A stretch of 64,000 bases of DNA from Alphaproteobacteria bacterium (GTDB lineage Bacteria > Pseudomonadota > Alphaproteobacteria > GM7ARS4 > G965262615), in contig OZ253545.1 in the NCBI GenBank assembly GCA_965262615.1, forward strand, positions 1,376,001 to 1,440,000, written 5' to 3'. The notes under the pieces are model-generated. The model ran no database searches. It saw only the letters and a list, made by a program, of their open reading frames with translations, and was not told the DNA's origin. Both the position numbers and the translations under genes were made by a program. Within the stretch, counting starts at the first letter, position 1. Every line of letters starts with the position of its first letter. Positions 16,295-64,000 of the stretch are shown here, one piece after another.

Positions 16295-16349
16295 TTCATC
16301 ACCGGCGAGACCATGGCAATCAACGGCGGACAATACATGGACTAAGTGA
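16295..16349 (+). repeat. Orphan copy of the phbB 3' end (FITGETMAINGGQYMD*)
   Basis: Matches reverse complement of 20322-20376 with one synonymous change (TTT/TTC). Confidence 0.95.
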
Positions 16350-16358
16350 TTGTGTGCT

Positions 16359-16471
16359 GTCGGGCTGGCGTGGGGGTGTCCCAAGACCACGCGAGCCCCA
16401 ATACAACAAAAGGCTCTCGCTTATTTCCCTATCTCAACGATTCGGGTTTTGTATTGAGCAAGCAACCCGAC
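16359..16471. repeat. Structured repeat E2
   Basis: gtcgggct...aacccgac termini; shares blocks with E1 and E3/E4. Confidence 0.8.
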
Positions 16472-16570
16472 GCGCACCGTCAGCGGTGCGGTGGTGTTTC
16501 GCTTGCTTCTTGATATGTGATGAGTGTCATGATGACCTCCGTTGATTTGTTTCGCTGTGTCCCAGCTCGC

Positions 16571-16653
16571 GCCGGGCTTTGCGAAAGCTGCCAACGGGTC
16601 AGCTCCTGCTTATTTCCCACCAAGTGGGTGTTGTATTTAGCAAGAAGCCCGAC
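16571..16653. repeat. Structured repeat E3
   Basis: cgggctt...aagcccg termini; near-identical to E4. Confidence 0.85.
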
Positions 16654-16700
16654 TCATGCCAAAGCATGAGCCAGACCGTTGGCTGACTTTACGCCTCTCT

Positions 16701-16729
16701 ACTTTATGGCAAAAGGCATCATAAAACAA
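16701..16729 (-). promoter_or_regulatory. Putative sigma70 promoter reading into E3
   Basis: TTGTTT-17bp-TAAAGT on minus strand. Confidence 0.55.
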
Positions 16730-16743
16730 GATTTTTTATAAGC

Positions 16744-16826
16744 ATCGGGCTTTGCGAAAGCTGCCCAATGGTCAGCTCCTGCCTATTTCCCACGAAGTGG
16801 GTGTTGTATTGAGCAGGAAGCCCGAC
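16744..16826. repeat. Structured repeat E4, abuts the purB stop codon
   Basis: tcgggctt...aagcccga termini; near-identical to E3. Confidence 0.85.
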
Positions 16827-18169: not shown

Positions 18170-20320
18170 TTAATAACGCAAGCGAGAAAAGGTGATGGCG
18201 GGAAGAGGTTGGTCTTTACAGATTTCTCGTAGGCGATGCTCTAGGTAATCGCGCGTGCCTCCTTTGTCTTTCATGTCGTAACCGAGAATGATGGTGCAGG
18301 GGCTTTTTGTTTTGCCGCCACTTTTGACCTTTTTTAGCAATCCCAAATTTGTTTCGTAGTAAAGACGCGGCGGCGCGTGGCGGTCATCTGCTTTGAGGCG
18401 GTGGTCACCAGGAACAAAATTGCGAATGATGCGATATTCCTTATCGTAGCGATAAAAATCATCTTTATAGAGATAAGGTAGCGAACCCAGCACCGCCAAA
18501 ACAATTTGGCTCACCACGCTTTTATATCGCTCATATTTTTCCTCAGCTTCTTTTTTTTCAATAAAATCTCGGATAGCTGCCAATTCGTCTTCCAACTTAC
18601 CGACCGTTGTCTCATACTTCTCTTTCTCTTCCTCTTCCTCATCTTTTTCATCTTTGTAAACAATTCTATAAACCGCCATCTTGGTATCATCATCTTTATT
18701 TTTTTCAGCCGAAATGAGGTCGGCTATTAACTCATCTCCTGCATGGGATTGTTGTATCTTCGTATCACCAAGATCTTCTGCTGGAATGTCAAGAGTGAGG
18801 CAGACACCTTGCCCTTTGTTGCCATGCAAATTCCACAAATTGAGATTATCTTCTTTGTCATTATCGCATAGGGATAAAATATAAGTAGAAACAAGAGGTC
18901 TGTGTGATGAGTGGATGCGGTCTCTCTCTTGAGCGAAATAATGTAAAGCGGTGTCGTCTTTTGCTTGCTTAAAAAAATAACTTCCCTCAGTGGGGTCATT
19001 GCAATAACGCACATTGTACATCCGCAGCAAGCTCTTATCCCCTCCTTTGTCTTCATCTTTATCCTTATCTTCCAGCATATTTTCCAAGTGCTTATATTTC
19101 GTGTAATGACACACTTTAAGGACATCTTGTCCATTGGCTTCTAATATACTTTTAACATTATGACGCTTTTGCAAAATCTCTAAAACTTTTTTGTTCAATT
19201 GATTCAAAAGGCTTTGCACTTTACCGCAATCATCTAGTGGTAAATTCTCTTTAAGAAAAGAGTCCAACACAAGATAACGAACGAAAGCTAGTTCAAAACC
19301 ATTACCATAAGCCTCGCGATACCATTTGAAAGATTCGTTAAAATCTTTATCAACACCTACACCATCTTGATACAGGTGTCCAAGAAAGAATTGAGAAGCG
19401 GCATGCCCCTGTTCAGCAGATTTTCGGTAAAGTTCCGCAGCCTTCTCTTCATTTTTTTCAACACCTAGACCGTGTAGGTGTAAGTATCCAAGAAAGTATT
19501 GAGCATGGTCATTTCCTTGGTTGGCAGCCTGGCGATAAAATTCCACAGCTTTTTCATAACTTTGCTCAACACCCCTGCCATGTTCGTACAAGAATCCAAG
19601 ATAGAATTGAGCGGGGGCATGCCCTTGGTCGGCAGCTTTTTGGTAAAATTCCGCAGCTTTTTCATAACTTTGCTCAACACCTATACCTTCGTGGTACAAG
19701 ACTCCAAGAGAGGCTTGAGCATGGGCATGCCCTTTGTCGGCAGCTTCTTGGTAAAGCTCCGCAGCTTTTTTGTCACTTTGCTCAACACCCATCCCTCGTT
19801 GGTACAAGATACCAAGACGGAATTGAGCATTGACATCCCCTTGTTCGGCAGCTTGGCGATAAAGTTGCACCGCTTTTTTATAATCTATGTCAACGCCTAG
19901 ACCTTGTTGGTAGAGGAAACCAAGAAAAGCTTGAGCATTGGCATGCCCTTTGTCGGCAGCTTCTTGGTAAAATTTTGCAGCTTTTTTGTAATTTTTCTCA
20001 ACAACCTTACCTTCTTGGCACAAGATACCAAGATAGAATTGAGCATTTGCATGACCTTGTTCAGCAGCTTGGTGATAAAGTTCCACAGCTTTTTTGTCAT
20101 TCTTCTCAACAACCCTACCTTCTTGGTAAAAAGATCCAAGACGGAATTGAGCATTGGCATTTCCTTGTGTAGCAGATTTTTCAAACCAAACAAGTGCTTG
20201 AGAATCATCGTGCGGAAAGCCCCCACTGCCCATTGCAAAACAAGAAGCCACCTCACACATCGCATTGGTGTCACCCGCCAGTGCTTGTTTGTAAATGTCG
20301 CTGTCTTTGTAATCCGCCAT
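18170..20320 (-). CDS. Sel1-repeat (9x) + DUF2971-like protein
   Basis: Nine 36-aa A..G...AQF.LG..Y..G.GV repeats; C-terminal HYT, NDP.EG, LW..HG..G.GVC, K...Y..D.EYRI. Confidence 0.85.
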   Translation of the reverse strand: MADYKDSDIYKQALAGDTNAMCEVASCFAMGSGGFPHDDSQALVWFEKSATQGNANAQFRLGSFYQEGRVVEKNDKKAVELYHQAAEQGHANAQFYLGILCQEGKVVEKNYKKAAKFYQEAADKGHANAQAFLGFLYQQGLGVDIDYKKAVQLYRQAAEQGDVNAQFRLGILYQRGMGVEQSDKKAAELYQEAADKGHAHAQASLGVLYHEGIGVEQSYEKAAEFYQKAADQGHAPAQFYLGFLYEHGRGVEQSYEKAVEFYRQAANQGNDHAQYFLGYLHLHGLGVEKNEEKAAELYRKSAEQGHAASQFFLGHLYQDGVGVDKDFNESFKWYREAYGNGFELAFVRYLVLDSFLKENLPLDDCGKVQSLLNQLNKKVLEILQKRHNVKSILEANGQDVLKVCHYTKYKHLENMLEDKDKDEDKGGDKSLLRMYNVRYCNDPTEGSYFFKQAKDDTALHYFAQERDRIHSSHRPLVSTYILSLCDNDKEDNLNLWNLHGNKGQGVCLTLDIPAEDLGDTKIQQSHAGDELIADLISAEKNKDDDTKMAVYRIVYKDEKDEEEEEKEKYETTVGKLEDELAAIRDFIEKKEAEEKYERYKSVVSQIVLAVLGSLPYLYKDDFYRYDKEYRIIRNFVPGDHRLKADDRHAPPRLYYETNLGLLKKVKSGGKTKSPCTIILGYDMKDKGGTRDYLEHRLREICKDQPLPAITFSRLRY

Positions 20321-20325: not shown

Positions 20326-21060
20326 TTAGTCCATGTATTGTCCGCCGTTGATTGCCATGGTCTCGCCGGTGATAAAAGATGCATGGTCGGATGCCAAAAA
20401 ACAGGTCGCCGCGGCGATCTCTTCCGCCAAGCCAAAGCGTCCCACGGGAATGCCGCTGCGGATGGCATCGCGCACCTTCTCGGGAACAGCCGCCACCATG
20501 TCGGTATCAATGTAACCGGGGGCGACCACATTCACCGTCACGCCCTTTGCCGCTCCCTCCAGTGCCAATGCCTTGGAAAACCCAATAATGCCCGCCTTTG
20601 AGGTGGCATAGTTCACCTGTCCAAACTGTCCTTTTTGTCCGTTGATGGAGCTCATGCTGATGATGCGTCCCCAGCCGCGCTCCCTCATGCCCGCAAAAAC
20701 CAAACTGCTCATGTGGAAGACAGAATCCAAATTGGCAGACAACACCTCACGCCACGCCTCAACGCTCATTTTATGAAACGCGCCGTCACGGGTAATGCCG
20801 GCATTGTTCACCAGCACATCAACCGCACCCAGTTCTTTTTCCACCTGAGCCACGCCGTGCTGGCAGGCATCATAATCAGAGACATCCCACTTCCACGCCT
20901 GAATTCCTGTCTCTTTGGTGAAGCCTCGCGCTCGCTCCTCATTGCCCACATAGGTCACACCCACCGTGTGACCCTCTTTTTGCAACGCCCGCGCCACCGC
21001 CGCGCCGATGCCGCGCGTGCCGCCCGTCACCAACGCCACTCTTGCCATCTCAGATGCCAT
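20326..21060 (-). CDS. phbB: Acetoacetyl-CoA reductase
   Basis: TGGTRGIG, NNAGITRD, SSINGQKGQFGQVNYATSK, INGGQYM; follows thiolase. Confidence 0.95.
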   Translation of the reverse strand: MASEMARVALVTGGTRGIGAAVARALQKEGHTVGVTYVGNEERARGFTKETGIQAWKWDVSDYDACQHGVAQVEKELGAVDVLVNNAGITRDGAFHKMSVEAWREVLSANLDSVFHMSSLVFAGMRERGWGRIISMSSINGQKGQFGQVNYATSKAGIIGFSKALALEGAAKGVTVNVVAPGYIDTDMVAAVPEKVRDAIRSGIPVGRFGLAEEIAAATCFLASDHASFITGETMAINGGQYMD

Positions 21061-22235
21061 CACAGAGCCTCCACACACATGGCGATGCCCTGTCCGCCGC
21101 CAATGCACAAAGTGGCAAGCCCTTTAGAAGCCCCGCGTTTTTGCAACTCATGAATGAGGGTCACCAAAATGCGCGCCCCCGATGCACCAATGGGATGCCC
21201 CAACGCAATCGCCCCGCCATTGACATTGATTTTCTCCGAATCCCATCCCAAATCCTTTGTCACCGCACATGCTTGTGCCGCAAACGCCTCATTGGCTTCA
21301 ATCAAATCAAGGTCATCCATAGACCAGCCTGCAAGTTCCAACGCTTTGCGACTGGCGGTGATGGGTCCGCTTCCCATCAAAGCGGGTGACACCCCCACGG
21401 TCGCCCACGACACAATGCGCGCCAACGGCTGGCATTTTTGTCGCGTTGCACGCTCACCACTCATGACCACCACCGCCGCCGCGCCATCATTGATGCCAGA
21501 CGCATTGCCCGCCGTGACCGTCCCGTCCTTCTTAAAGGCGGGACGCAGTCTCTCCAGCTGCTCCAGCGTCACGCCATGACGAGGAAACTCATCATCGCTC
21601 ACCTCCACCGTCTCCTTGCGGTGGGTGACAGGAACAGGGATGATTTCATCCTTAAAGCGACCGCTTTTTTGCGCCTTTTCTGCTTTGCGTTGCGATGCCA
21701 AAGAGAGCTCATCTTGCTCCTTGCGGCTCACCTGCCATTTCTCGGCAACATTTTCGGCGGTGATGCCCATATGATAATCATTCATGGCGCACCAAATGCC
21801 GTCCTTGATCATGGTATCGGTGAAGCTCATGTCGCCCATTTTTTTGCCCTGACGCAACAACGCCGCATGGGGAGCAAGGCTCATGTTTTCTTGTCCGCCC
21901 GCCACGATGCAACAGCTGTCACCACAGCGAATAGATTGCGATGCCATCGCCACCGCCCGCAATCCCGAACCGCACACCTGATTGATGGTGACCGCCGTCT
22001 TATCCTCTGAGATGCCCGCCTTGAGAGCCGCCTGGCGAGCAGGATTTTGTCCGCAAGCAGCGGTGAGCACTTGTCCCATCAGCACCTCATCCACCTCGCC
22101 GCCATCAACAGATGACCGCTTCAATGATGACTCAATAACCAGTGCTCCCAAATCGCTCGCCGACACAGAGCTCAAAGCACCGCCCAGTGAGCCAATAGGC
22201 GTGCGCACCGCCGCGGTAATGACAATATCATTCAT
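21060..22235 (-). CDS. phbA: Acetyl-CoA C-acetyltransferase (thiolase)
   Basis: [25 protein letters not shown]. Confidence 0.95.
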
Positions 22236-23693: not shown

Positions 23694-25139
23694 ATGAACA
23701 CACATTCTTGGGACATTGTCATTGGATTAGAAGTGCATGCGCAGGTGACTCTTGCCTCTAAATTATTTTCGCCCTGCCGCATAGGTCGTGATGGGGTTGC
23801 CAATCGTCATGTTCATTTTGTGGATGCGGCGATGCCGGGCATGCTGCCCATTCTCAACAAGGATGCCATCACGCAAGCGGTGCGCACGGGACTGGCGTTG
23901 GATGCGGAGATCAATTTGTTTTCTCGCTTTGATCGCAAGCATTATTTTTACGCCGACCTGCCTCAGGGCTATCAAATCTCGCAGTATCATCATCCCATTG
24001 TGGGACGGGGCGCGTTGCCTTTTACCGCTGATGATGGCACAGAAAAAAGCCTTGCGGTGACTCGTCTGCATTTGGAACAAGACGCCGGCAAGAGCATTCA
24101 TGATGCCCATCCCTCCTATTCGCTGATTGACCTCAATCGCTCTGGCGTGACATTGATGGAGATTGTCTTTGAGCCGGAACTTCATTCGGCACAGGATGCG
24201 GGAGCGGCGATGCGAGCACTGCGAGCCTTGCTGCGCGCCATTGGCAGCTGTGATGGCAACATGGAGGAGGGCAATCTGCGGGCGGATGTCAATGTGTCGG
24301 TGCGCCGTTCGGGCGAGCCTTTGGGCACACGCACGGAGACCAAAAATCTCAATTCCATTCGTTTTATTCAACAAGCCATCACCTTTGAGGCAAATCGTCA
24401 GATTGAACTGCTGACCCGCGGCGAATCGGTGGTGCAACAGACGCGCCTGTTTGATTCCAAGAGCGGCGAAACATACGCCATGCGCAGCAAAGAAGAGGCT
24501 CATGACTATCGCTATTTTCCCGACCCCGACCTGCCGCCTTTGCACATCTCGGCTGACTGGGTGGCTGACATGAAGGCATCCTTGCCCGAATTGCCCCATC
24601 ACCGCCGAACGCGTTTTTGTCATGAATATCACCTCACCGCCGAGCAGGCGGCTCTGCTGGCGGATGACCCCGATATTGCTGATTATTTTGAGGCGGTGGC
24701 GAAAAATCACGAAAGCCACGATGTCGCCCGCTGGATGGTGGGCGATGTGTTTGCCTTTCTCAACAAAAATCATCTCACAATTCGCGACTGTCCCGTGACG
24801 CAAAACGATTTGAGCGATTTGCTTGATGAGATTAAAAACGGCACGCTGTCGCAGCGTCTTGCCAAAGAGGTGTTTCATGAGCTCACCCAAACGCCCAGCC
24901 ACACGGTGGCGGATATCATCAAAAGCCAGGGCATGGCGCAAATTTCCGATGATGACACCCTTGCCGCCATTATATCCGATGTGCTGGCGCAGCACGGCGA
25001 CAAGGTGGCGGATTATCAGGGCGGCAAGGACAAACTCTTTGGCTTTTTTGTGGGACAGGTCATGGCAGCCACCAAAGGACAAGCCAATCCGCAAAAGGTG
25101 GGCAATCTGCTGCGTGATGCACTGCAAAAGCCTTTATGA
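23694..25139 (+). CDS. gatB: Asp/Glu-tRNA amidotransferase subunit B
   Basis: IGLEVHAQ, FDRKHYFYADLP.GYQISQ, DYRYFPDPDL. Confidence 0.97.
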   Translation: MNTHSWDIVIGLEVHAQVTLASKLFSPCRIGRDGVANRHVHFVDAAMPGMLPILNKDAITQAVRTGLALDAEINLFSRFDRKHYFYADLPQGYQISQYHHPIVGRGALPFTADDGTEKSLAVTRLHLEQDAGKSIHDAHPSYSLIDLNRSGVTLMEIVFEPELHSAQDAGAAMRALRALLRAIGSCDGNMEEGNLRADVNVSVRRSGEPLGTRTETKNLNSIRFIQQAITFEANRQIELLTRGESVVQQTRLFDSKSGETYAMRSKEEAHDYRYFPDPDLPPLHISADWVADMKASLPELPHHRRTRFCHEYHLTAEQAALLADDPDIADYFEAVAKNHESHDVARWMVGDVFAFLNKNHLTIRDCPVTQNDLSDLLDEIKNGTLSQRLAKEVFHELTQTPSHTVADIIKSQGMAQISDDDTLAAIISDVLAQHGDKVADYQGGKDKLFGFFVGQVMAATKGQANPQKVGNLLRDALQKPL

Positions 25140-26173: not shown

Positions 26174-26202
26174 TTGCGATAAGAAATATAACCCAATATA
26201 AT
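26174..26202 (+). promoter_or_regulatory. Sigma70 promoter of the DUF4145 cargo gene (probably leaderless)
   Basis: TTGCGA-17-TATAAT, ATG 7 nt downstream, 4 bp after the queA stop. Confidence 0.7.
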
Positions 26203-26209
26203 GTTGTTC

Positions 26210-26887: not shown

Positions 26888-26920
26888 GATGGCTGTTTGC
26901 TGACACGACAAGACGCGTAA
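26888..26920 (+). repeat. Diverged second copy of the queA 3' end (DGCLLTRQDA*)
   Basis: Aligns ungapped to 26137-26169 (DGCLLQRQQT*), stop in the same register. Confidence 0.8.
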
Positions 26921-26975
26921 TTAATTGCTTGATAAAATCTTTGAGAGTATTATAAACAAAGTAGGAGTTCGATGT

Positions 26976-27341: not shown

Positions 27342-27431
27342 TTGAATCACAATTTGGTGCATGGGCGTTAAGGCATGATTAATTGATTGATCAAGTCTTT
27401 GAGGGCTTTGTGAATAAAGCGGGAGGATTGT

Positions 27432-53281: not shown

Positions 53282-53283
53282 AG

Positions 53284-53844: not shown

Positions 53845-53871
53845 TATAAAAACAGTGTGAAGGAGTAGCAA

Positions 53872-54390
53872 ATGGGCAAGACAACGCGAGTCATCGTATT
53901 TATTGCGTCATATCTGACGACAATCGTTGTGCTTGCCTTCATTTCTGCTATTTTGGTAGAGAATGATTATTATGAAGGTTCAGGGCTGCTTAGGAAATTT
54001 ATGCATGAACATTCAATAAGTGTCATGGTGACGATTACCGCTATTTATCTTTCCTTGGCATTTATCATGTTGGGTAATTCACCAGCAAACCACGACAAAA
54101 AAATCGGAAAAGCTTCACTGAGTCAAAATTTTGAATGGGTTGTCACTGTTCAAGGAATAATCATGGTGCTTCTGCCTATCCTGCAATTAAAATTGTTGTC
54201 GGAAACTTCAGCGCAAGAAATGCCAGAATGTTCACAAAATACTGCAAATTTGCCATGTATCATGTCTTCAAATTTGGAATTAAAAACCTTTAATTTCCTT
54301 TTTAATATTACCTCGCTTTATTTTTTAGTTGCGGCGGGGCTCATAACCACACTAATATCAAAATATCAAAAAAAGGAAGGAAAAAAATGA
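53872..54390 (+). CDS. Hypothetical membrane protein (about 4 TM)
   Basis: AAGGAG RBS; four hydrophobic segments; overlaps the res start. Confidence 0.7.
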   Translation: MGKTTRVIVFIASYLTTIVVLAFISAILVENDYYEGSGLLRKFMHEHSISVMVTITAIYLSLAFIMLGNSPANHDKKIGKASLSQNFEWVVTVQGIIMVLLPILQLKLLSETSAQEMPECSQNTANLPCIMSSNLELKTFNFLFNITSLYFLVAAGLITTLISKYQKKEGKK

Positions 54391-57080
54391 AACTCAAGTT
54401 TGACCCATCTCTGGACTATCAACAGGATGCCATCAATTCCGTGGTGGATGTGTTTGACGGGCAGCCCGTGGCTCAGTCCAATTTTGCCCTCAGTCACACC
54501 GCGGGCGACTTGGGCTTGGCACAAAACGAATTGGGCATTGGGAATAACCTTCTGCTGGATGATGAGCACATGCTCAAGAATGTCCAAGCCATCCAAGAGC
54601 GCAACGATATTGCAAAAGTCACAACCCTGCAAGGAGGGCGCAATTTCTCCATTGAGATGGAGACTGGCACTGGCAAAACTTATGTGTATTTGCGCACCAT
54701 TTTTGAATTGAGCAAAAACTACGGCTTTAAGAAATTCATCATTGTGGTGCCAAGCGTGGCGGTGCGTGAAGGTGTCCTCAAAAGCATAGAAATGACTCGT
54801 CACCACTTCAACGCCCTCTACAACAACACGCCCTTTGATGCCTTTGTCTATGATTCCTCGCGTCTCAATAATGTGCGTCAATTCGCCACCAGCAATCACA
54901 TCCAGATTATGATCATCAACATTCAAGCTTTTCAGCGTGATGTGGAAACACAAACGCGCGCCAATGTGATTAATCGTGAGAACGATAAGATGTCCGGCTA
55001 CAAGCCCATTGAATTTATCAAAGCCACCCGTCCGATGGTCATCATTGACGAGCCGCAAAGCGTGGATAACACAGACAAAGCCAAACACGCCATCGCCAAC
55101 CTCAACGCCACCACAATCTTGCGCTATTCGGCAACGCACCGCAATCCCTATAATCTGCTTTACAAACTTGACCCCATCAAAGCCTACGACCTCAGATTGG
55201 TCAAACGCATTGAAGTGGCTTCCATCCGCTCCGATGATAATTTCAACAATGCCTATGTGAAACTTCTCAAAACCGACAACAAAAAAGGCATCAGAGCACA
55301 GGTGGAAATCCACAAAAAAAGCAAGAGTGGTCTCATCAAACCCACCAAACTCTGGCTAAAAAATACCGATGACGATCTCTACATCAAATCGGCAAAGCAT
55401 GAAATCTATAGAGAGGGCTATGTGGTCAGTGAAATCAATTGTAAGCCGAACGAAGAGTATATTGAATTTAATTCAGGCAGAACGGTTAAGCTCGGTCAAG
55501 AAATAGGCGGGTTGGGTGATGAAATCATGAAAAAACAGGTCTATGAAACCGTCAAAGAGCATCTGGAAAAAGAACGAGGTGCACAAGACAAAGGAATCAA
55601 AGTGTTGTCTTTGTTCTTTATTGATAGGGTGGCGAATTATCGCATCCACAATGATGACGGCTCTACCAGTCTTGGCAAAATAGGAATATGGTTTGAAGAA
55701 GCTTTCAGCGATCTTCGCCAAAAAGCATCTTTCAAAGATTTAGAAATATGTCAATGGACAACCACTCAACTTCACGATGGTTATTTTTCAAAAGACAATA
55801 AAGGGCGCGCGAAAGATACCACAGGAAAAAGTAAAGACGATGGCGATACCTATAGTCTTATTATGAAAGATAAAGAGCGTCTGCTGAATCCAAATGAGCC
55901 ACTACGGTTTATTTTCTCCCATTCGGCTTTGCGCGAGGGGTGGGATAATCCGAATGTGTTTCAAATTTGTACCCTTAATGAGACTCAATCAATTGAGAAA
56001 AAACGGCAGGAAATTGGACGAGGTTTGCGTCTGCCAGTCAATGACAAAGGGGAGCGTGTTCATGACGACAATATAAATCGCCTCACCGTTATCGCCAACG
56101 AATTTTATGAAGATTTCGCTGCAAAGCTGCAAAATGAATTTGAAGAAGATTGTGGAATTCAATTTGGTGAGAATCGTGTGGAGAATGCTCGCGAGCGTCA
56201 AAAGATTCTTCTTAACAAGCAGGTGCAGCTCAGTGATGACTTCAAACAACTCTGGAATCAAATAAAGCACCGAACCCGCTATCGGGTTGAATTCGCAACA
56301 GGTCGTCTTATCCAAGAAGCGGCTAAGGGCATTAAAGGCATTTTGGTGAGCACGCCATCTTTGGTTCATCAAGAAGGGTCAATAGATATTACGAAGTCTG
56401 GCGTTGAATTCGAATGGATAAGAGAAACGAGGCAAAGAATATCGCCACCTGATATTTTTCCAGACATTCTTGCTCATTTGCAAAATGAGACAGAACTCAC
56501 CCGTGATACGCTTGTGAGAATTCTGAAGAAAGCTAATTGCTTGGATAAGTTCCTTCGCAATCCTCATGTCTTCATGATAGCTGCCAGCAAAGAGATTAAG
56601 CGCGTTATGAGTAAATTGATGATAGAAGGCATTCAATATGAGAAGATAGCTCATCGCTATTGGGACATGAAACTTTTTGAAACAAATGGCAAAAACGAAC
56701 TTATGCGTTATCTGAAAAATCTTTATAGGGTTCGTAATGTGCAAAAAAGCATTTATGATTGGGTGGAATTCAATTCTGATATTGAAAAGCGATTTGCCCA
56801 AGCACTCGATAATGATCAAGATGTGAAGTTATTTATCAAGCTTCCCTCTTGGTTTAGGATAGATACACCTATTGGTTCATATAATCCTGATTGGGCATTC
56901 ATTAGGAAGGATAACGATGAAAAGCTCTATTTTGTTTGTGAAACCAAGGGAGGGCTTGACTCGGATGAGCGCAGCGAAAAAGAAAACCAAAAGATTGAAT
57001 GCGGAAAGAGTCACTGCGACACTATCGGTGTTAAGTACGAAGTGGCAAAATCATTGCGTGACATAGTCACTAGGATTTAA
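54387..57080 (+). CDS. res: Type III RM restriction subunit
   Basis: EMETGTGKT, IIDEPQ, SAT, ALREGWDNPNVF, YNPDWA...ETKG. Confidence 0.95.
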   Translation: MKLKFDPSLDYQQDAINSVVDVFDGQPVAQSNFALSHTAGDLGLAQNELGIGNNLLLDDEHMLKNVQAIQERNDIAKVTTLQGGRNFSIEMETGTGKTYVYLRTIFELSKNYGFKKFIIVVPSVAVREGVLKSIEMTRHHFNALYNNTPFDAFVYDSSRLNNVRQFATSNHIQIMIINIQAFQRDVETQTRANVINRENDKMSGYKPIEFIKATRPMVIIDEPQSVDNTDKAKHAIANLNATTILRYSATHRNPYNLLYKLDPIKAYDLRLVKRIEVASIRSDDNFNNAYVKLLKTDNKKGIRAQVEIHKKSKSGLIKPTKLWLKNTDDDLYIKSAKHEIYREGYVVSEINCKPNEEYIEFNSGRTVKLGQEIGGLGDEIMKKQVYETVKEHLEKERGAQDKGIKVLSLFFIDRVANYRIHNDDGSTSLGKIGIWFEEAFSDLRQKASFKDLEICQWTTTQLHDGYFSKDNKGRAKDTTGKSKDDGDTYSLIMKDKERLLNPNEPLRFIFSHSALREGWDNPNVFQICTLNETQSIEKKRQEIGRGLRLPVNDKGERVHDDNINRLTVIANEFYEDFAAKLQNEFEEDCGIQFGENRVENARERQKILLNKQVQLSDDFKQLWNQIKHRTRYRVEFATGRLIQEAAKGIKGILVSTPSLVHQEGSIDITKSGVEFEWIRETRQRISPPDIFPDILAHLQNETELTRDTLVRILKKANCLDKFLRNPHVFMIAASKEIKRVMSKLMIEGIQYEKIAHRYWDMKLFETNGKNELMRYLKNLYRVRNVQKSIYDWVEFNSDIEKRFAQALDNDQDVKLFIKLPSWFRIDTPIGSYNPDWAFIRKDNDEKLYFVCETKGGLDSDERSEKENQKIECGKSHCDTIGVKYEVAKSLRDIVTRI

Positions 57081-57094
57081 ATATTAAATTGTAA

Positions 57095-57278
57095 TCAGTT
57101 CTCTTCTTCAAAATTCTGCTTCTTGCCATTCGTATGTATACGGCTATCAATCCACTGTTGGATGACAGATGTGTGCCAGCCGATGGCGCGTCCGCCTCGT
57201 TGGAGGGGTTTGGGAAAATTCCCCGCGTCCATCCATTTGTATAAGGGTAGCATTAGAGATGCCGATGCTTTTCAGCAC
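57095..57278 (-). pseudogene. AlpA-family excisionase/regulator relic
   Basis: Hand translation with one frameshift: VLKSIGISNATL/YKWMDAGNFPKPLQRGGRAIGWHTSVIQQWIDSR. Confidence 0.8.
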
Positions 57279-57383
57279 GGGAATTTTGTTTGTTCCTGCA
57301 TACCCTGAATGATGTCCGAAAGCCGTGGGCGTGGAAGTCATAGCAGTGATTGCGTGGTCACTTCATGAGGGTGGCATCTGAGA

Positions 57384-57387
<4 letters not shown>
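57278..57387 (-). pseudogene. P4-type tyrosine integrase fragment
   Basis: PLSDATLMK*PRNHCYDFHAHGFRTSFRV/QEQTKFP, the HxxR catalytic box with a stop and a frameshift. Confidence 0.8.
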
Positions 57388-57426
<39 letters not shown>

Positions 57427-57441
57427 TGAGGGGATTTATGA

Positions 57442-57531
<90 letters not shown>

Positions 57532-57632
57532 AAAATGCCTTGCAAAGCGTTGCGACACCTTGCTTTTAGAAGATTGCAAGCTTTTCCGTCCCACGATACG
57601 ATATAAGTGATACCTAAAAAGATGTTTAAGGT

Positions 57633-59954
57633 TTATACAGAATCTTGTAAGTATAGATGTTTTTGAAAGGCGATGAATGTTTTTCTAATTGTTTCAACAT
57701 TACCTAATTTTTCCTTGGCAGAGGAAAGACTGCTATATTTCAACTCAAGAACTTTACTTAATTTGCTGTCATCCAATTCATCAACGCCATCTCTGACATA
57801 ATTGGTTAGTACAAAATCGACAAATTTGCGCTGCTCCCGTTCCAATGGAGCATAAATATTATCTTTAGCAGCTCGTACGCGTTCGGTGCGGCTCACCGGT
57901 GGAGATGCATAAAGGATATATTCAAGCACATCCAACAAATCGCTATTTTCTGCCTGAAATATTTTTTGTAACCCTTCAAGATTACTCCTATCAAATCCCT
58001 TGTCTTCAAGTCTTTTAAGTAACTCCACCCGTTCTGTGGGATTTGCCCACAGAGATTGCAATTCTTGGTGAGTTTTGAATGTATCCGGCAATTGCAATTG
58101 TTTCAAAAGACTTTTTCTATAGTCTTCCTTTTTGATTAGCTTGCCGTCAATCATCAGCTCTTCTGATGAACGGATTACGACTTCTTGCTCTTTACCGTCT
58201 GCCAGTTTTATTTTTATTTTTTCACTTTGAGGCTGAGTCGGTTTTTTGTTTTCTGACGGCGATTTGCGAGATTTTTTCACTTCTTCGCTTGCCGCATTAT
58301 ATTCGATGTCTTCTTCATGTTGTGTTTTGCCGTCCCAGTTTTCGTCGTGGAATTTATGAGATGCGCCGACAAAATCAATAATGGTAAAATAATCCTTGCC
58401 TTCAAAGAGGCGCGTGCCTCGTCCTATGATTTGCTTAAATTCAATCATGTCATTAATAGGGCGCATGAGGACAATATTGCGAATGTTGCGAGCATCAACG
58501 CCAGTGGAAAGTTTGCGGCTGGTGGTGACGATCGTAGGAATGATTTTTTCGTTATCTTGAAAGCTTCTGAGATGATTATCACCAATTGTGCCGTCTGCTG
58601 ATGTCACTCGCACACAGTAATCGGTGGATTTTTTTTGCGCTTCTTGATTTGTTAAATCTCGTATCAGGGCGGCGTGCTCTTGGGTGTGACAAAAGACGAT
58701 TGTCTTTTCATCTCTATTGATATTGGCGAGCATCAAACGCGTCCGTATCCGTTCACGGGATTCTATTTGAATTTTTGTGTTAAATTCATTTTCTGTGTAG
58801 GTATGATTTTCATCCACTTCACCCTGTAACACTGTGTCATCATCTTCGTAGGTGTATTGGTCTAGTGAGGTTTGGATGCGCTTGACTCTAAAAGGTGTCA
58901 AATAACCATCTTGAATTCCCTCTTTGAGGCTGTAGCTGTAGACGGGGTTGCCGAAATATTTGTAGGTGTTCGCATTATCTTTGCGTTTGGGAGTGGCGGT
59001 GAGTCCCAGCTGCACGGCGGATGCAAAATATTCTAAAATTCCTCGCCATTTGCTTTCATTGTTTGCGCCGCCTCTATGGCACTCATCAATGACGATAAAA
59101 TCAAAAAAGTCGGGTTCGTAATCGCCGAAGTATGGTTTTTCGCCACTCATGAAGGTTTGAAAGATGGTAAAAAAGATGCCAGCGTTTTTGGGGACAGAGC
59201 CTCTTTGGCGTATGGCATTGGGGGTGACTCTTTGCAGGGCATCGGGGGGAAACATGCTGAAGGCGAGATAAGCCTGTCCTGCGAGAAAATTGCGATCGGT
59301 GAGAAAGAGGATGCGAGGCTGTCCGCTTTGTCCGTTTTTAGTCCATCGGCTTTTGAATAGTTTCCACGCGATTTGTGCGGCGATGAAGGTTTTTCCTGTG
59401 CCGGTGGCAAGGGTGAGCAGAATGCGCGATTTTCCCGCGGCGATGGCATCCATCACATTTTGAATGGCGAGTTCTTGATAGTAACGAGATTCTTTGCCAA
59501 TGTTCCGTTGGAGAGGGATGACATCAAATTGATCTTGCCATTGTTTTTGTTTGGGGTTTTGTTTTTTGCCATGAAATTGTTGCCAGAGCGTGTCGGGGGA
59601 TGGGAAGGCATCGCAGAGCCCTTCTTTGCCTGTGGTGCGGCAGATTTGATAGATTTCCTTGCCATTGGCGGCGAATGCCATGGGGGCTTTGAGTTTTTCT
59701 GCATAGTTTTTGGCCTGACCAACCCCTTCGCCCACTTCGGTTTCATCAGACTTGGCTTCAATGGCGGCGAGGATGCGGCTTTTGTGGATGAGAACATAAT
59801 CGGCTGATAATTTGCCTTTTCTCATGCCCCCCGCTTTGATCTCACCCGCGCTGATTTTATACTCACGCCTGACGCGACTGCCCGCCACCACGCCCCAGCC
59901 AGCCTCTTTCAGCTGAGGATCAATCAGATTAGCGCGTGTATCAGCTTCATTCAT
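57633..59954 (-). CDS. hsdR: Type I RM restriction subunit (EcoAI-like)
   Basis: MNEADTRA..ID..L..AGW, ADYVL...IEAK, ATGTGKT, DECHRG, TATP, QIIGRGTR. Confidence 0.95.
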   Translation of the reverse strand: MNEADTRANLIDPQLKEAGWGVVAGSRVRREYKISAGEIKAGGMRKGKLSADYVLIHKSRILAAIEAKSDETEVGEGVGQAKNYAEKLKAPMAFAANGKEIYQICRTTGKEGLCDAFPSPDTLWQQFHGKKQNPKQKQWQDQFDVIPLQRNIGKESRYYQELAIQNVMDAIAAGKSRILLTLATGTGKTFIAAQIAWKLFKSRWTKNGQSGQPRILFLTDRNFLAGQAYLAFSMFPPDALQRVTPNAIRQRGSVPKNAGIFFTIFQTFMSGEKPYFGDYEPDFFDFIVIDECHRGGANNESKWRGILEYFASAVQLGLTATPKRKDNANTYKYFGNPVYSYSLKEGIQDGYLTPFRVKRIQTSLDQYTYEDDDTVLQGEVDENHTYTENEFNTKIQIESRERIRTRLMLANINRDEKTIVFCHTQEHAALIRDLTNQEAQKKSTDYCVRVTSADGTIGDNHLRSFQDNEKIIPTIVTTSRKLSTGVDARNIRNIVLMRPINDMIEFKQIIGRGTRLFEGKDYFTIIDFVGASHKFHDENWDGKTQHEEDIEYNAASEEVKKSRKSPSENKKPTQPQSEKIKIKLADGKEQEVVIRSSEELMIDGKLIKKEDYRKSLLKQLQLPDTFKTHQELQSLWANPTERVELLKRLEDKGFDRSNLEGLQKIFQAENSDLLDVLEYILYASPPVSRTERVRAAKDNIYAPLEREQRKFVDFVLTNYVRDGVDELDDSKLSKVLELKYSSLSSAKEKLGNVETIRKTFIAFQKHLYLQDSV

Positions 59955-60006
59955 AATTTTTTTATACCTTTAATCATTAGTCATTGCCACCTTCATTGGT
60001 GTTTTT

Positions 60007-61011
60007 TTACTCATCAGAATTTGCTTGCTTTGATTTTCTGTGTTCAATTTGTTTTTTCCCATCTTTTTTCTGCGTTGCCAAAAATTTTTGCAAACGCTTA
60101 TAATTCAATTGAAAGACACCTTTCTCATCTTGTTCAATAAATTCGGGCGGGTTCAGGGATGGATGAAATTCCGTTCCCTTCTCCATCAGGGCAATCAATT
60201 TCTTAAGCCCCGCCAATAAGCTGGTTTTCATTTCTTGCGGGTTGTTTGGAGTCTTATTTTTCACTTGTTCAATGAGCTCATCAATTTTTTCCCCGATTGT
60301 TATTTTAACCGAGTCGTCAACATGCTCTTCAAAGGTGGGAAATTTCTTTTCACCTTTTGAACTTTCAGCTCTTCTCTTCATCGCCTCATAAGAGAGCCTT
60401 GCTACTTCCGATTCAAACCAAGTTTTCCGCATAGCTATAATTTCATGGGCAATTTTGGCGACACTCATGAAACCATAAAGTGCTATATGCACCGAAATTG
60501 CGATGACATACCATTCTGTCCCTCTATCAAAACCAACAAAGCGAACATCCCCTCGAATCCCTTTTTTCACAACAATAAAATCCAAAATTTCTTGAAGCTC
60601 TGCATTGAATCGGCTCAGGCTCTCAATGTCTTGCGTGTATTCCTGCGGGATTTTTATATTGACAAATTCTTGCTTCTGTTTTTGCGTGACCGATTCAAGC
60701 ATATCATAAAAGATAGGCATATGTTGGTTTATGAAGATAACCACATTATGCAAGGATGCCTGTTCCTTTGAAGAAATCTCAATGTCACGGATATGCCGTT
60801 GTTTGTTGTACCTATTTATTACATTCTGTATGCGCATATCTGTATTATTAACCCAAGGCTGCTTAACGAGCTGCTCAATAGCTGCGATAAAATCACCACA
60901 TTCTGCCAATAAAAAGCGATTGCCGCCGTGAAGTGCTTCAGGGGAATAGGTCAGCACCTTATTTTCATTAACAGCTCGGTCAATGATGCTTTTAAGTTCA
61001 TTGGCTCTCAT
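60007..61011 (-). CDS. Hypothetical protein inside the hsd cluster
   Basis: 334-aa AT-rich ORF, no recognised motif. Confidence 0.7.
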   Translation of the reverse strand: MRANELKSIIDRAVNENKVLTYSPEALHGGNRFLLAECGDFIAAIEQLVKQPWVNNTDMRIQNVINRYNKQRHIRDIEISSKEQASLHNVVIFINQHMPIFYDMLESVTQKQKQEFVNIKIPQEYTQDIESLSRFNAELQEILDFIVVKKGIRGDVRFVGFDRGTEWYVIAISVHIALYGFMSVAKIAHEIIAMRKTWFESEVARLSYEAMKRRAESSKGEKKFPTFEEHVDDSVKITIGEKIDELIEQVKNKTPNNPQEMKTSLLAGLKKLIALMEKGTEFHPSLNPPEFIEQDEKGVFQLNYKRLQKFLATQKKDGKKQIEHRKSKQANSDE

Positions 61012-61108
61012 CAGGCTTTTTACTCGTTGTTCGGATTGACCTCATTGGGTGGCGGGAGCGACAAAGATACAACATGAGGCAGTTGCAAACAAGCCTTTAC
61101 ATTGTGTG

Positions 61109-61723
61109 TCATTGAGCCAAAAGATTGCCTTTGAAGGCTTCATTTAAGATGGAATTTTTGAGGTTGGCAAGTTCCGTTTGTTTTTGTGTGGTGGTGGCGA
61201 GAGCGTGATTGATTTCGTCAAAGATGGCATCCAGCTTGGCGACAATCCGCTCCTGCTCCTCCAGCGGCGGCAGGGGAAGAGTTATAGCTTCTATCTGCTC
61301 TTTGTTAATTGAGTTATAAATTGCACCAGAGCTACCTTTCAAACTATCAGTAAGAGAAAGAAGAATTAGGTAAAGGCAATCTTTGCTTACTCCATCTTTG
61401 GCGCGTATCGCAGCTAGCCCTCTACCAATGCAAATCTCTTCTGTTGCTATATTCAATGCTCCAACGGGGGCGCGAACAGACATTAATATATCGTCCTTAA
61501 TTGCCTTTCTTGTTATTTTAGTTGTCCAAACCGTAGGCGAATTAAGATATTTTTTGCCATAATCTTTTTTCCCCTGATAGAACGGTAATCCGTTACCATT
61601 TTTGTTGTAGTTTTCACCTTTTGGGGCTTGTCCAGCGATAACAATAGCAACATCCCCCAATTTCACCATCTGCCATCCTTTGGGCAGAGGATTGCCATCC
61701 ATGCTCTGTTTGCCATCAGCCAT
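61109..61723 (-). CDS. hsdS: Half-size type I specificity subunit (single TRD)
   Basis: LPKGW..VKLGDV, DILMSVRAPVG, PLPPLEEQERIV, AFKG.L. Confidence 0.88.
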   Translation of the reverse strand: MADGKQSMDGNPLPKGWQMVKLGDVAIVIAGQAPKGENYNKNGNGLPFYQGKKDYGKKYLNSPTVWTTKITRKAIKDDILMSVRAPVGALNIATEEICIGRGLAAIRAKDGVSKDCLYLILLSLTDSLKGSSGAIYNSINKEQIEAITLPLPPLEEQERIVAKLDAIFDEINHALATTTQKQTELANLKNSILNEAFKGNLLAQ

Positions 61724-62135
61724 TCTTTGTCTGATTCCATGTAAAATTTTGCGCTATGGCAGCAAAAGCGGGATAAAATCGCTTGGTGATGTCTTCAGCC
61801 ACTTTTTGTGCGATTCCCTCATCGTAAATATGGTGTGCCTTGCGGCGACCCTCCACGACACCCAGCCAAAGAGCCTTATCCATAATCAAGCCATGAGCAC
61901 AAGCCTCTCTGACCACATCCTCACCCTGAGCAAGCCCCTTAATGCCGAGCTCTCGCAAACAATCCCTGAAAACATTGATGACCAATTCTTCAGACATTTC
62001 AAAATATTTCACCATCACCGTGCGTTCATTCTCAGATAAAGGACGCTTCTCGGCAAGCTCCGCCATCCTCTTTAGATGACGGAGAGATTTCACATAATTA
62101 CTGAATCTTTGTTTCCAGCGCGCATCATTCATCAT
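61716..62135 (-). CDS. HI0074-family nucleotidyltransferase substrate-binding (HEPN) protein
   Basis: RWKQRF.NY..SL, FE...E, W.....GR....H.YDE; GGAGGAG RBS. Confidence 0.85.
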   Translation of the reverse strand: MMNDARWKQRFSNYVKSLRHLKRMAELAEKRPLSENERTVMVKYFEMSEELVINVFRDCLRELGIKGLAQGEDVVREACAHGLIMDKALWLGVVEGRRKAHHIYDEGIAQKVAEDITKRFYPAFAAIAQNFTWNQTKNG

Positions 62136-62187
62136 GCTCTCCTCCCAACAGTTCTTTGATGCGTTCCATTGATTGACGCACCTCATG
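62125..62187 (-). repeat. Diverged second copy of an hsdM 3' end (EVRQSMERIKELLGGEHDE*)
   Basis: Aligns to DAQLSIEKIKTLLGVES* at 62587-62640; overlaps the next start codon in a similar way. Confidence 0.7.
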
Positions 62188-62228
62188 GCGACCCTCTACG
62201 ACACCCAGCCAAAGACGCTTATCTGCAA

Positions 62229-62480
62229 TCAAGAGAAGAAGGTCTGCCCTAACATCATAAGCAAGATGGAAGAACCAAGCCCTAGAAGCCAGTTAAAAAT
62301 CTCAGCTGTCTTTTTATTGATATCTTCTTTCAGTTCGCCTTTGATTTCGGACATACGAAGTTCCACACGGCTTTCGATTCCAGCCACATCTTCCTTAGTC
62401 GCGGCATTTTCTATATGCCTCTCCAAACGCTCGTCCAGACGCGCTACAGTGTGACTGACATCTTCCCAAGGCTGTCCCAT
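62229..62480 (-). CDS. Small coiled-coil + C-terminal TM protein (XhlA/CCDC90-like)
   Basis: ATKEDV..IE motif, C-terminal hydrophobic helix; own TTGACA-17-TACAAA promoter 7 nt upstream of ATG. Confidence 0.65.
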   Translation of the reverse strand: MGQPWEDVSHTVARLDERLERHIENAATKEDVAGIESRVELRMSEIKGELKEDINKKTAEIFNWLLGLGSSILLMMLGQTFFS

Positions 62481-62586
62481 GCCACTATTTGTATGCGGAG
62501 TGATGATTTTTGTCAAGCACTTATTTGTAGGATAAAATCGCTCGGCTATCTTCTCAAAAGCTTCTGCGAATTCTTGTCGGCATCCG

Positions 62587-64000
62587 TCATGATTCAACTC
62601 CCAAAAGCGTTTTTATTTTCTCTATAGAGAGCTGTGCATCTTTATCCAATTTTTCAACCTCTGCCAATATCTCCCCTGGTGTGCGGGTATCTTTCTTCTC
62701 TTTCCGATGGGGATTGCGCGCCGTCAAATCCCATGTGGTTTTTTCAACATCCTTGAAATGAATTGTCCAGCTGTTGTCGCTATTGGCTCTGGTTTTAGCA
62801 CAGATGAGAAAATCCTGCATGTCCGCTTCAGTCAGAGGCGTTGTCTTGCCAAACTTGCGATTGGGATTCATCTGATAATACCAAACACGCTCCGTCGGCT
62901 TGCCTTTCGTGAAAAACAAAACCACCGTTTTGACTCCCGTGCCGGTAAACGGCGTCTGAGGAAAATCCAAAACCGTATGAAGGTCGCAACTCCGCAAAAG
63001 CTCCTTGCGCAACGCAATGCTGGCGTTATCGGTATTGCTGAGAAAGGTGTTCTTAATCACAACGCCGCCACGTCCGCCCGCCTTCAGCATCTTGATAAAA
63101 TGCTGCAAAAACAAATACGCCGTCTCTCCCGTATCAATAGGAAAATTGTTCCTGATCTCCGAGCGTTCATTGCCGCCAAAAGGCGGATTCGCTAGAACAA
63201 TATCAACGCGATCTTTTTCTTCAATCTCGTTAATGTCCTGTGTCAGGGTGTTTTTGTGAATGATGTTGGGAGTCTTAATCCCATGCAAAATCATGTTCAT
63301 GATGCCAATCACATAGGCTAAAGACTTCTTTTCCGCACCACGAAAGGTATTTTTTTGTAACACATCTTCATCCTTTGTCGTCAGCTGGTCTTGGCTCTTG
63401 CGTAGATAGTCGTAAGCTTCACACAAAAAACCCGCACTGCCGCAAGCACCATCATAAATCGTGTCGCCAATCTGCGGAGCAATGACCTTTATGATCGCCT
63501 TGATCAGTGGGCGTGGCGTATAATACTCGCCGCCATTGCGTCCCGCATTGCCCATGCTCTTAATTTTATCCTCATACAGTGCGCTTAACTCATGACGCTC
63601 TTCAGCAATTCGAAAAAACGGCATCTCGTCAATTCTATCAATAACCTCACGCAAACTATAGCCACTTTGCAACTTGTTAGTGAGCTCATTAAAAATCTCA
63701 CCAATTTTATACTCAATGGTGTCGGCACTTTCTGCCTCCGTTTTGAATTTCCGCAAATAAGGGAAAAGCTCACCTTCCACAAAATATTTCAAATCATCGG
63801 CCGTCTTGGCAATATTGTAATCTAGCGTGCCATCGTCTTTTTTCGGAGCCGCCCAAACATCCCACGAAAAATCAGCCTTGAGAATAGGATTATAGTGCTT
63901 GCCATCAAGCTGCGAAGCTTCCAGCATCTCCTGCTCATAATCAGAAAGATACTTCAAAAATAAAATCCAAGAGGTTTGTTCAATATAATCAAGCTCACTG
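62587..64000 (-). CDS. hsdM: Type I RM methylase, 5' end outside window
   Basis: GEYYTPR, YDGACGSAGFL, ANPPFG; frame open to the edge (SELDYIEQTSWILFLKYL). Confidence 0.95.
   Translation of the reverse strand, partial: SELDYIEQTSWILFLKYLSDYEQEMLEASQLDGKHYNPILKADFSWDVWAAPKKDDGTLDYNIAKTADDLKYFVEGELFPYLRKFKTEAESADTIEYKIGEIFNELTNKLQSGYSLREVIDRIDEMPFFRIAEERHELSALYEDKIKSMGNAGRNGGEYYTPRPLIKAIIKVIAPQIGDTIYDGACGSAGFLCEAYDYLRKSQDQLTTKDEDVLQKNTFRGAEKKSLAYVIGIMNMILHGIKTPNIIHKNTLTQDINEIEEKDRVDIVLANPPFGGNERSEIRNNFPIDTGETAYLFLQHFIKMLKAGGRGGVVIKNTFLSNTDNASIALRKELLRSCDLHTVLDFPQTPFTGTGVKTVVLFFTKGKPTERVWYYQMNPNRKFGKTTPLTEADMQDFLICAKTRANSDNSWTIHFKDVEKTTWDLTARNPHRKEKKDTRTPGEILAEVEKLDKDAQLSIEKIKTLLGVES

Follow-up and report, generated by a model that had tools for sequence, protein, structure and literature searches.

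Core genes of a compact alphaproteobacterial genome are repeatedly followed by a second copy of their own last codons, in part of the cases with small accessory genes lying between the two copies. We analysed a window of 64,000 nucleotides (nt), bases 1376001-1440000 of the host contig, in which queA, gloA, coq7, phbB and hsdM have such displaced tails with cargo, and tgt and dsbB carry tandem tails. The host genome (G000) is a single contig of 1,542,258 bases with a G+C content (GC) of 51%, a completeness of 98.3% and a contamination of 0.02%. Tails are duplicated in excess of controls, the DNA between the copies is inserted, strains vary in what they carry, the copies differ in the manner of coding sequences, and the searched recombinase and transposase families are missing apart from XerC/XerD-like enzymes. 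The reading that we favor, at slightly less than even confidence and from sequence comparison, is that these junctions were left by foreign DNA that was added, without an integrase and anchored by homology, where closely packed core genes end.

Annotation of the window used Pfam, NCBIfam and PADLOC. The parts at queA, gloA and coq7 are:

25114-26169, plus strand: queA, start uncertain (Pfam Queuosine_synth), with the attached tail at 26137-26169
26201-26872, plus strand: PD-T7-4 / DUF4145 defence-like gene, the queA cargo
26888-26920, plus strand: displaced queA tail
42293-42760, plus strand: gloA (Pfam Glyoxalase)
42710-42762, plus strand: attached gloA tail, a sequence repeat
42767-43933, plus strand: DarT and DarG macro domain fused in one open reading frame (ORF) of 388 amino acids (aa), the gloA cargo
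44001-44053, plus strand: displaced gloA tail, a sequence repeat
44104-45775, plus strand: helix-turn-helix (HTH)-peptidase M78 (RmrA-like) gene and DUF4411 gene, between the displaced gloA and coq7 tails
45782-45817, minus strand: displaced coq7 tail
45850-46122, minus strand: 90-aa winged-helix (HTH) gene, the coq7 cargo
46160-46738, minus strand: coq7 (Pfam COQ7)

The last 33 nt of queA recur at 26888-26920 (21/33 identical), with 6, 1 and 5 differences at the three codon positions (6/1/5; later triplets are to be read likewise). The queA pair has 5 synonymous and 3 non-synonymous codon changes, and its stop is in register. The last 51 nt of gloA recur at 44001-44051 (47/51 identical; 0/0/4), in a flanking repeat that measures 53 nt in full, and the last 36 nt of coq7 at 45782-45817 (28/36 identical; 1/1/6). 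The DarT-DarG start codon lies 6 nt past the gloA stop, so that readthrough from gloA may be possible.

An earlier note on this DNA had reported seven duplicated tails. All seven are present where it placed them, and they beat shuffled controls: when 20-residue tails were shuffled 500 times each at the protein level, no shuffle came up to the observed score for queA, gloA, phbB and tgt, 1 did for coq7 and 2 did for hsdM. A weak copy of the aquaporin tail also lies at 12146-12074.

The recurrence that the note proposed extends to the whole genome. Gene calls were crude and ORF-based (n=1502), and 1354 of them (length 300 nt or more, distance to either contig end above 6.2 kb) were scanned with a probe made of the last 105 nt plus 15 nt, counting matches that scored at least 20 within 6 kb downstream. 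Such matches were found for 138 of the 1354 genes, and for none when the downstream sequence was reversed. Once whole-gene paralogy was removed, 53/1354 genes had a tail-only downstream copy and 32 genes a head-only upstream copy, whereas control segments gave 6 and 5 in the downstream direction (gene middle and head, respectively) and 5 and 4 in the upstream direction (tail and middle). The window contributes only 4 of the 53 genes. The total is a lower bound, because queA, hsdM, phbB and dsbB were missed by the nucleotide scan.

Comparison genomes come from the same order (G001-G003) and the same class (G013, G017). G000 is the sole member of its family among them, and Tgt is 50-56% identical in the three order relatives. 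A wider scan of genome contigs with Tgt gave proteins that were only 45-47% identical, and metagenome contigs searched with Coq7 gave identities of at most 49%. Tail-only counts from the same pipeline, run on 400-kb samples of the relatives, were:

G000, this genome, four slices: 17/337, 9/358, 14/360, 16/322
G002, same order, other family: 32/331
G001, same order, third family: 2/345
G017, same class: 1/322
G013, same class: 3/331

The count in G000 is thus far above those in G001, G013 and G017, as the earlier note would have it, but G002 is likewise high. The trait is confined to some lineages. It is neither general in bacteria nor a by-product of complete assemblies; G013 and G017 are single-contig genomes too, yet lack it.

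The note had also taken the cargo to be inserted DNA, and gene order in the relatives bears this out. queA and tgt are adjacent, 15-36 nt apart, in G001-G003 (3/3), gloA and coq7 are convergent and abutting in G001 and G003 (2/3 order relatives), dsbB and dedA are neighbours in 3/3, and an FAA hydrolase gene follows tgt in G001 and G003. From this ancestral adjacency, the DNA that lies between these genes in the window is inserted. This includes a GmrSD-like gene and a split ParA-like gene (47311-50254) between dsbB and dedA. The ParA-like gene, at 49168-50254 beside the GmrSD-like gene, is broken across two reading frames and may be a plasmid or element remnant. Genome-wide, the copies are separated by at least 300 nt in 20 of the 53 pairs. 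The intervening DNA has a GC of at most 0.47 in 14 of these 20 cargo pairs, and in 12 of those 14 the host gene has a GC of at least 0.51.

Cargo in the window is largely defence-like, again in agreement with the note: DarTG, PD-T7-4, the RmrA-like HTH-M78 gene with DUF4411, GmrSD and restriction-modification (RM) systems. Elsewhere in the genome the cargo includes SocA/Panacea (two cases), an FkbM methyltransferase, DUF5131, DUF3644 with a nuclease domain, ankyrin proteins (five) and Sel1 proteins (four). The further suggestion that cassettes often bring a promoter did not survive, with 7 promoter-like sites against 5.2 expected and, in a second comparison, 7 against 6.5. Single good sites lie at 26174-26202, a 10-of-12 match ahead of the PD-T7-4/DUF4145 gene, and at 28915-28944.

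The phbB site has a more complex layout, involving these features:

20326-21108, minus strand: phbB
18170-20320, minus strand: Sel1-DUF2971 gene downstream of phbB, the phbB cargo
14546-16345, plus strand: second Sel1-DUF2971 gene, frameshifted, with the phbB tail copy at its end
16362-16471, 16563-16653 and 16736-16826, minus strand: three copies of a structured repeat of ~90 nt that resemble Rfam sRNA-Xcc1
14371-14452: fourth copy of the structured repeat

The last 51 nt of phbB recur on the other strand at 16295-16345 (50/51 identical; 0/0/1), and the two Sel1-DUF2971 genes share 47% protein identity. In G002 and G003 the purB-like gene lies next to algH in divergent orientation; in the window it is reversed. 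The relocated tail is best read as the result of one inversion of the purB-like gene, the repeats, the displaced phbB tail and the cargo. If so, phbB would once have had the plain order of gene, cargo and tail, as synteny suggests. The end-to-end alignment of the structured repeat to the Rfam model of sRNA-Xcc1, an sRNA of Xanthomonas integron cassettes, scores 30-41 bits and so falls short of the gathering score (53); the repeat is predicted to fit a multi-stem RNA. About 19 copies occur genome-wide, clustered beside accessory cassettes, and copies flank the block of Sel1-DUF2971 gene and phbB tail.

Strains differ in what they carry at one gene end. Near-identical DNA turns up in sequencing runs whose labels read marine metagenome, sponge metagenome or 'organism A/B', and contigs of X1 (marine) and X3 (sponge) cover kilobases of the window at ~95-97% identity, which indicates that related strains live in marine and sponge habitats. 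The comparison used metagenome contigs mapped once on the window, and contigs cannot show rare forms. In X1, the DNA from 44083 up to the coq7 stop (46160) is replaced by 1836 other letters, and X3 contigs too diverge from the window exactly at 46160, so that both carry other DNA from the coq7 stop, as the note's cassette traffic would have it. One X1 contig joins 27353 to 27858 with 22 other letters and therefore lacks the second of two small cassettes between queA and tgt (27354-27857). The gloA cargo is common to X1 and X3, and no empty gloA site was seen among close strains in the mapped contigs. dsbB is single-copy in X1, X3 and a minor X7 contig, which join 46688 to 46830/46833 with 27-30 other letters.

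These strain data also bear on whether the junctions are an assembly artefact, with alleles of co-occurring strains strung into one contig. We regard this as very improbable. A sample with more than one form of the dsbB/coq7 junction (the minor X7 contig) and several tandem units that differ at strain-like levels are what such an error could produce, but a 12-kb X1 contig from another study carries gloA, DarT-DarG and the displaced tail in the same layout, ~3.4% different. X7 contigs match 42733-44172 and 45192-46211 without any difference, although X7 may be the source sample. Single-contig genomes without the trait (G013, G017) also speak against an artefact, and the 15 of 15 tandem duplications inside genes that keep the reading frame (below) indicate real sequence.

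The absence of an intact integrase, noted earlier for this DNA, is true of the whole 1.54-Mb genome. Tyrosine recombinases (PF00589) are represented by two genes, one XerD-like (296 bits, cut-off 279) and the other with XerC as its best NCBIfam match. Both fall far below the cut-off for integron integrases (123 and 106 bits against 265). Family searches of the whole genome found no PF00239/Resolvase, rve, DDE_Tnp_1, Y1_Tnp, RVT_1 or TnpB, and Pfam found no mobility gene in or beside the inserts among the window ORFs. As to movement by Xer, which these data do little to settle, no dif-like site lies within 7 mismatches of the dif consensus; one weak site with 8 mismatches is inside a gene.

Against this background we considered relics of site-specific integrative elements at gene 3' ends and tRNAs that have lost their integrase or depend on one supplied in trans by an element outside the assembly. 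In textbook site-specific integration, attP sequence takes the place of the 3' end of the gene or tRNA, and the part of the window that fits it best is the tRNA-Ser array:

51395-57080, plus strand: type III RM island, within 51161-57545 and flanked by 162-nt repeats
57546-64000, minus strand: type I RM island, with hsdR at 57633-59954, hsdS at 61109-61723 and hsdM from 62587
62125-62597, minus strand: hsdM site, with a 122-aa ORF (62229-62597) between hsdM and the displaced tail

The 162-nt repeats (51161-51322 and 57384-57545) are 98% identical, and each takes in a whole tRNA-Ser plus part of its neighbour. The type I RM island ends at a third tRNA-Ser, equivalent to 64299-64388 just beyond the window, and a C5-methylase/HATPase pair comes next. 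The type III RM system, the type I RM system and this pair (reaching the equivalent of 64402) are set apart by three complete copies of tRNA-Ser(cga), and a conserved end is common to the first two islands, much as expected of site-specific elements. We nevertheless judge this origin improbable for the junctions as a set. Only XerC/XerD-like recombinases were found in a 98.3% complete single contig, the targets are at least 14-20 different genes with repeats of 27-162 nt, and the cargo is often one small gene in 0.3-1.3 kb. The tRNA repeat is also longer than usual att cores, which the description of RM insertions in PMC2853133 excludes by a limit of >30 bp.

Within the type I island, hsdM (stop at 62587) has a weaker tail-like frame at 62184-62125, with a 10-codon core that is 19/30 nt identical (2/2/7). 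Fragments at this site are permuted: a 47-nt internal piece of an NTase_sub_bind gene occurs at 61844-61890 and again at 62187-62233, beside the displaced hsdM-like tail, and the start of the 122-aa ORF resembles the C-terminal end of the NTase_sub_bind gene.

Differences between the copies of the tail pairs, counted by codon position, were:

All G000 pairs, n=53: 130/79/186
G000 cargo pairs with the displaced tail outside a long ORF, n=14: 39/23/76
G000 tandem pairs with the displaced tail outside a long ORF, n=30: 69/40/83
G002 tandem pairs, n=25: 31/30/36

The third-position share in the G000 cargo pairs (55%) is above the ~40-45% that we roughly estimate for free decay of one copy, and the stop is in register in at least five of these pairs; there is no such bias in G002. 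The coding-type divergence claimed for tails around cargo is supported. At coq7 the tails differ at 8/36 nt, and at gloA, where the cargo is shared with X1 and X3, at 4/51. The dsbB tandem is strain-specific and its units are ~30% diverged, whereas the strains with a single copy are only ~3-5% diverged, and the order relatives are single-copy too. The third-position excess and this tandem suggest that some pairs began as two distinct alleles of one tail.

Base composition is less telling. The attached tail is AT-richer than the displaced one at queA (GC 0.39 against 0.52), gloA (0.53 against 0.59) and coq7 (0.36 against 0.44), as the earlier note observed, and also at the hsdM core (0.30 against 0.43) and tgt (0.36 against 0.45/0.47). 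This pattern fails genome-wide, where the attached tail is AT-richer in 14 pairs, the displaced tail in 27 and the two are equal in 12; in cargo pairs, 63 differences have AT in the attached and GC in the displaced copy, and 76 the reverse.

The strongest rival to addition of foreign tails is duplication in place, in which a high rate of short tandem duplication (by slippage, unequal exchange or staggered-break repair) creates both copies from resident sequence, cargo is captured at or with the event, and selection keeps the duplications that are in frame or span gene ends. The features at the tandem tails of tgt and dsbB are:

26915-27824, plus strand: two paralogous small cassettes upstream of tgt, ORFs 26925-27341 and 27432-27824
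27849-28943, plus strand: tgt (Pfam TGT)
28878-29078, plus strand: tgt tail in three 67-nt units arranged head to tail, mutual identity 79-89%, no cargo
29087-29989, plus strand: N4/N6 DNA methyltransferase gene, between the tgt tails and the convergent FAA hydrolase gene
46692-47324, minus strand: dsbB with an in-frame 99-nt tandem

Of the tgt units, the first, which is the attached one, has a GC of 0.36, the second is interrupted by an in-frame stop and the third is an intact reading frame; the attached unit differs from the two displaced ones by 3/4/6 and 3/4/7. The dsbB units (46714-46810 and 46813-46909) are ~70% identical (13/6/10), enclose no cargo and also hold a second coq7 start region; DsbB proteins of the order relatives align only to residues 152-169 of 210. 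The note had counted tgt (three units) and dsbB (two units) among its duplicated tails, but both belong to a wider class of 47 short tandem-repeat loci outside long paralog arrays and are not in themselves evidence of cargo traffic. The period is divisible by 3 in 15/15 loci inside genes, and among the 32 that span gene ends or are intergenic the periods spread 6/11/15 over the three remainders. A generic duplication process with a reading-frame filter explains this placement. Elsewhere in the genome, locus L086 (G000:C1:18200-18657) has three copies of a 153-nt unit across two convergent genes. In a single-copy state these gene ends would overlap by ~30 nt, and the triplication parts the two frames.

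Side observations at tgt concern its methyltransferase neighbour and upstream cassettes. The attached, AT-rich tgt tail contains, at 28915-28944, an 11-of-12 match to the sigma-70 consensus that ends at the stop and faces the methyltransferase gene, and the two displaced units retain weaker versions. This methyltransferase was not found next to tgt in the three order relatives. X1 depth is low over 29002-30335 (6.4 and 3.9, against 80-114 alongside), no listed contig spans the methyltransferase, and an X1 joint connects 30001 to 30682 with 19 other letters. The two small cassettes have repeated 5' regions (26915-27101 and 27373-27563).

In favour of in-place duplication, most tandem units are separated by 0-9 nt and several are 97-100% identical. 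Microhomology at the tandem junctions is not decisive, with remainders of 0-8 nt in the clean cases. The G002 pairs are even by codon position, there is no AT trend, the trait keeps to the same lineages (G000 and G002, not G001, G013 or G017), and a comparable class is described for RM systems in PMC2853133. Cargo pairs look different, with their 39/23/76 pattern and stops in register, and the strain-specific dsbB tandem is far more diverged than the strains themselves. Cargo also sits exactly at the unit junction, not anywhere in the dispensable copy. A route by end joining was rejected, with no Ku and no ATP-dependent ligase domain in 4/4 genomes of the order. For the three repair functions examined, loss as the cause of a raised duplication rate is not supported, with RecJ-like proteins and ExoVII in 4/4 and MutS in 3/4 of these genomes. 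Overall, we consider in-place duplication with capture rather unlikely, although it leads the other alternatives.

Under homology-anchored addition, donor DNA from diverged relatives would bring a variant of the final 30-160 bp of a gene, or a variant tRNA, beside a small AT-rich accessory cassette. General, RecA-type recombination through this short homology would add the cassette and leave resident DNA in place, either through one crossover with the donor in circular or concatemeric form or by one-sided homology-facilitated recombination. One tail allele would then complete the gene and the other would remain behind the cargo. We infer the donor, the uptake route, the recombination intermediate and the dependence on RecA. 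The genome is ~95% coding, and ancestral neighbours abut or lie 15-36 nt apart. In such a compact genome, only insertions that regenerate a gene end would survive, which would make the duplicated tails visible. The cargo-less tgt and dsbB tandems would represent the genome-wide short tandem class passing through the same filter, and the dsbB tandem itself looks like a segment of a diverged allele that was added in tandem.

Several observations weigh against this interpretation. No circle, empty site or recombination intermediate was seen in the contigs, and no joint of attached to displaced tail was found among the matches listed. The third-position bias of 55% is intermediate; fully constrained alleles would differ otherwise, and part of the divergence is therefore plain decay. 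The G002 pairs are mostly tandem and evenly spread (31/30/36), as in-place duplication followed by decay predicts. With no genome-wide AT trend, the idea that the tail travels with the cargo has no compositional support. ComEC and DprA are present in G000, but they also occur in bacteria not known to transform, including E. coli, so that competence of the host is not established. Finally, the two tRNA-Ser islands share a conserved end of at least 107 nt before the tRNA copy and look like a site-specific element family.

The idea has precedents. The closest is insertion with long target duplication (Furuta, Abe and Kobayashi 2010, PMC2853133), described for RM systems of types I-IV, for the most part from species that are naturally competent, and by an unknown mechanism. 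Those inserts are of a few kb, carry no mobility genes and lie between direct repeats of >30 bp and variable length. The repeats that flank inserts here also exceed 30 bp (gloA 53 nt, coq7 36 nt, queA 33 nt, tRNA-Ser 162 nt), and the uninterrupted site is single-copy in relatives at gloA/coq7 (G001, G003), queA-tgt (G001-G003) and the dsbB junction (X1, X3). The tRNA-Ser RM islands fit closely, with the R and M genes by which that study searched; these are lacking in the queA, gloA, coq7 and phbB cargo. In contrast to the RM class, cargo here is mostly non-RM (DarTG, PD-T7-4, HTH genes, ankyrin, Sel1), the targets are gene 3' ends at a density of 53/1354, 20 of them with cargo-sized spacing, and the copies often differ in coding style, which argues against both having been made from the target, although near-identical tandems and the G002 pattern argue for it.

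Minimal mobile elements of Neisseria, also already in print, are cassettes that lie between a pair of conserved genes and are swapped through homologous recombination (PMC3082526). They resemble the present case in having no mobility genes and in movement ascribed to homologous recombination in the flanks. Conserved flanking genes here are queA/tgt, gloA/coq7 and dsbB/dedA, and different cassettes occupy the same site (X1 and X3 at 46160; 27354-27857 absent in X1). In the Neisseria elements, a double-crossover swap leaves no duplicated end, whereas here one flank is duplicated and DNA is added.

A third precedent is integration by recombination through a short anchor. Homology-facilitated illegitimate recombination was reportedly described by de Vries and Wackernagel in 2002. 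In E. coli, a single crossover of a circle leaves a duplication of 109-950 bp of homology around the insert (PMC3240628); a short anchor is enough, and the homology is duplicated on both sides of the insert. Such Campbell-type and homology-facilitated events are laboratory outcomes with engineered donors, unlike a standing genome-wide way of holding accessory genes, as which they are not known.

Genomic islands at tRNA and gene 3' ends share the regenerated end and the old end displaced behind cargo, but here there is no integrase in cargo or genome and the many targets are unrelated. No shared junction core was found, although no systematic motif search across junctions was made; a 10-nt junction word has only two occurrences in the genome. 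Integron cassettes, including attC clusters without an integrase, are similarly small, often single-gene and in many cases defence-like, and the sRNA-Xcc1-related repeat flanks one cassette. However, G000 has no integron integrase, the repeat is predicted to be a multi-stem RNA and not an attC hairpin, and most cassettes are bounded by gene tails and not by this repeat. The case combines three precedents and extends them to non-RM cargo, gene 3' ends, high density and lineage specificity; a limited literature search found no description of such density and lineage specificity. Of the earlier interpretation, then, recurrence, insertion, defence cargo, the missing integrase, coding-type divergence around cargo and strain differences stand, and promoters, the AT rule as a general one and the tandem tails as part of the cargo pattern do not. 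The route that the note proposed, homology-anchored recombination of circles or of transforming DNA, would fit the data.

The genes of the window are arranged as follows, from its start to its end:

Seven PMT_2-like paralogs, ETF genes, aquaporin, HAD hydrolase, algH
Frameshifted Sel1-DUF2971, purB-like lyase, second Sel1-DUF2971, phbB, thiolase
ptsN-like, spoU-like, tRNA-Pro, gatB
queA, PD-T7-4/DUF4145, two small paralogous ORFs, tgt, methyltransferase, FAA hydrolase, lolA, ftsK
Further core genes to gloA; DarT-DarG, HTH-M78 and DUF4411, small HTH
coq7, dsbB, GmrSD, split ParA-like, dedA
tRNAs, type III RM, tRNA-Ser, type I RM

The seven tandem paralogs (2-9808, minus strand) encode proteins of 492-503 aa from DNA that is 60-90% identical, and one has a match to PMT_2, a family of membrane glycosyltransferases. 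In place of these paralogs, G003 has thiolase-phbB after the adjacent ETF gene. Tandem repeats of 23-27 nt lie upstream of a cytochrome c gene (34719-34890), and inside ftsK (~32700-32865) contigs of X7 and X10 have a 64-nt joint, and repeat-like loose ends occur there as well.

A broader proposal is that gene ends are the distributed docking sites of a self-perpetuating, enzyme-free cassette system. Recombination between the two tails would free a unit of tail plus cargo, which general recombination could then insert again at that gene's end, in whatever strain or related species. Such a system would be the main route by which this lineage gains and exchanges defence genes and eukaryote-like repeat proteins, replacing integrases and transposases. 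We consider this doubtful, though a genuine possibility. How small defence and accessory cassettes move without a recombinase of their own has been an open question since insertion with long target duplication was described for RM systems. The genome offers an unusually dense natural data set, with dozens of junctions in 1.5 Mb, one sister lineage that shares the trait and another that lacks it, and strains living together whose cargo differs at one and the same stop codon. The substitution pattern of tail pairs can separate imported alleles from in-place duplicates, and together these features make the question of mechanism testable. For annotators, a short fragment that resembles a gene's tail and follows a gene in a compact symbiont genome points to inserted DNA.

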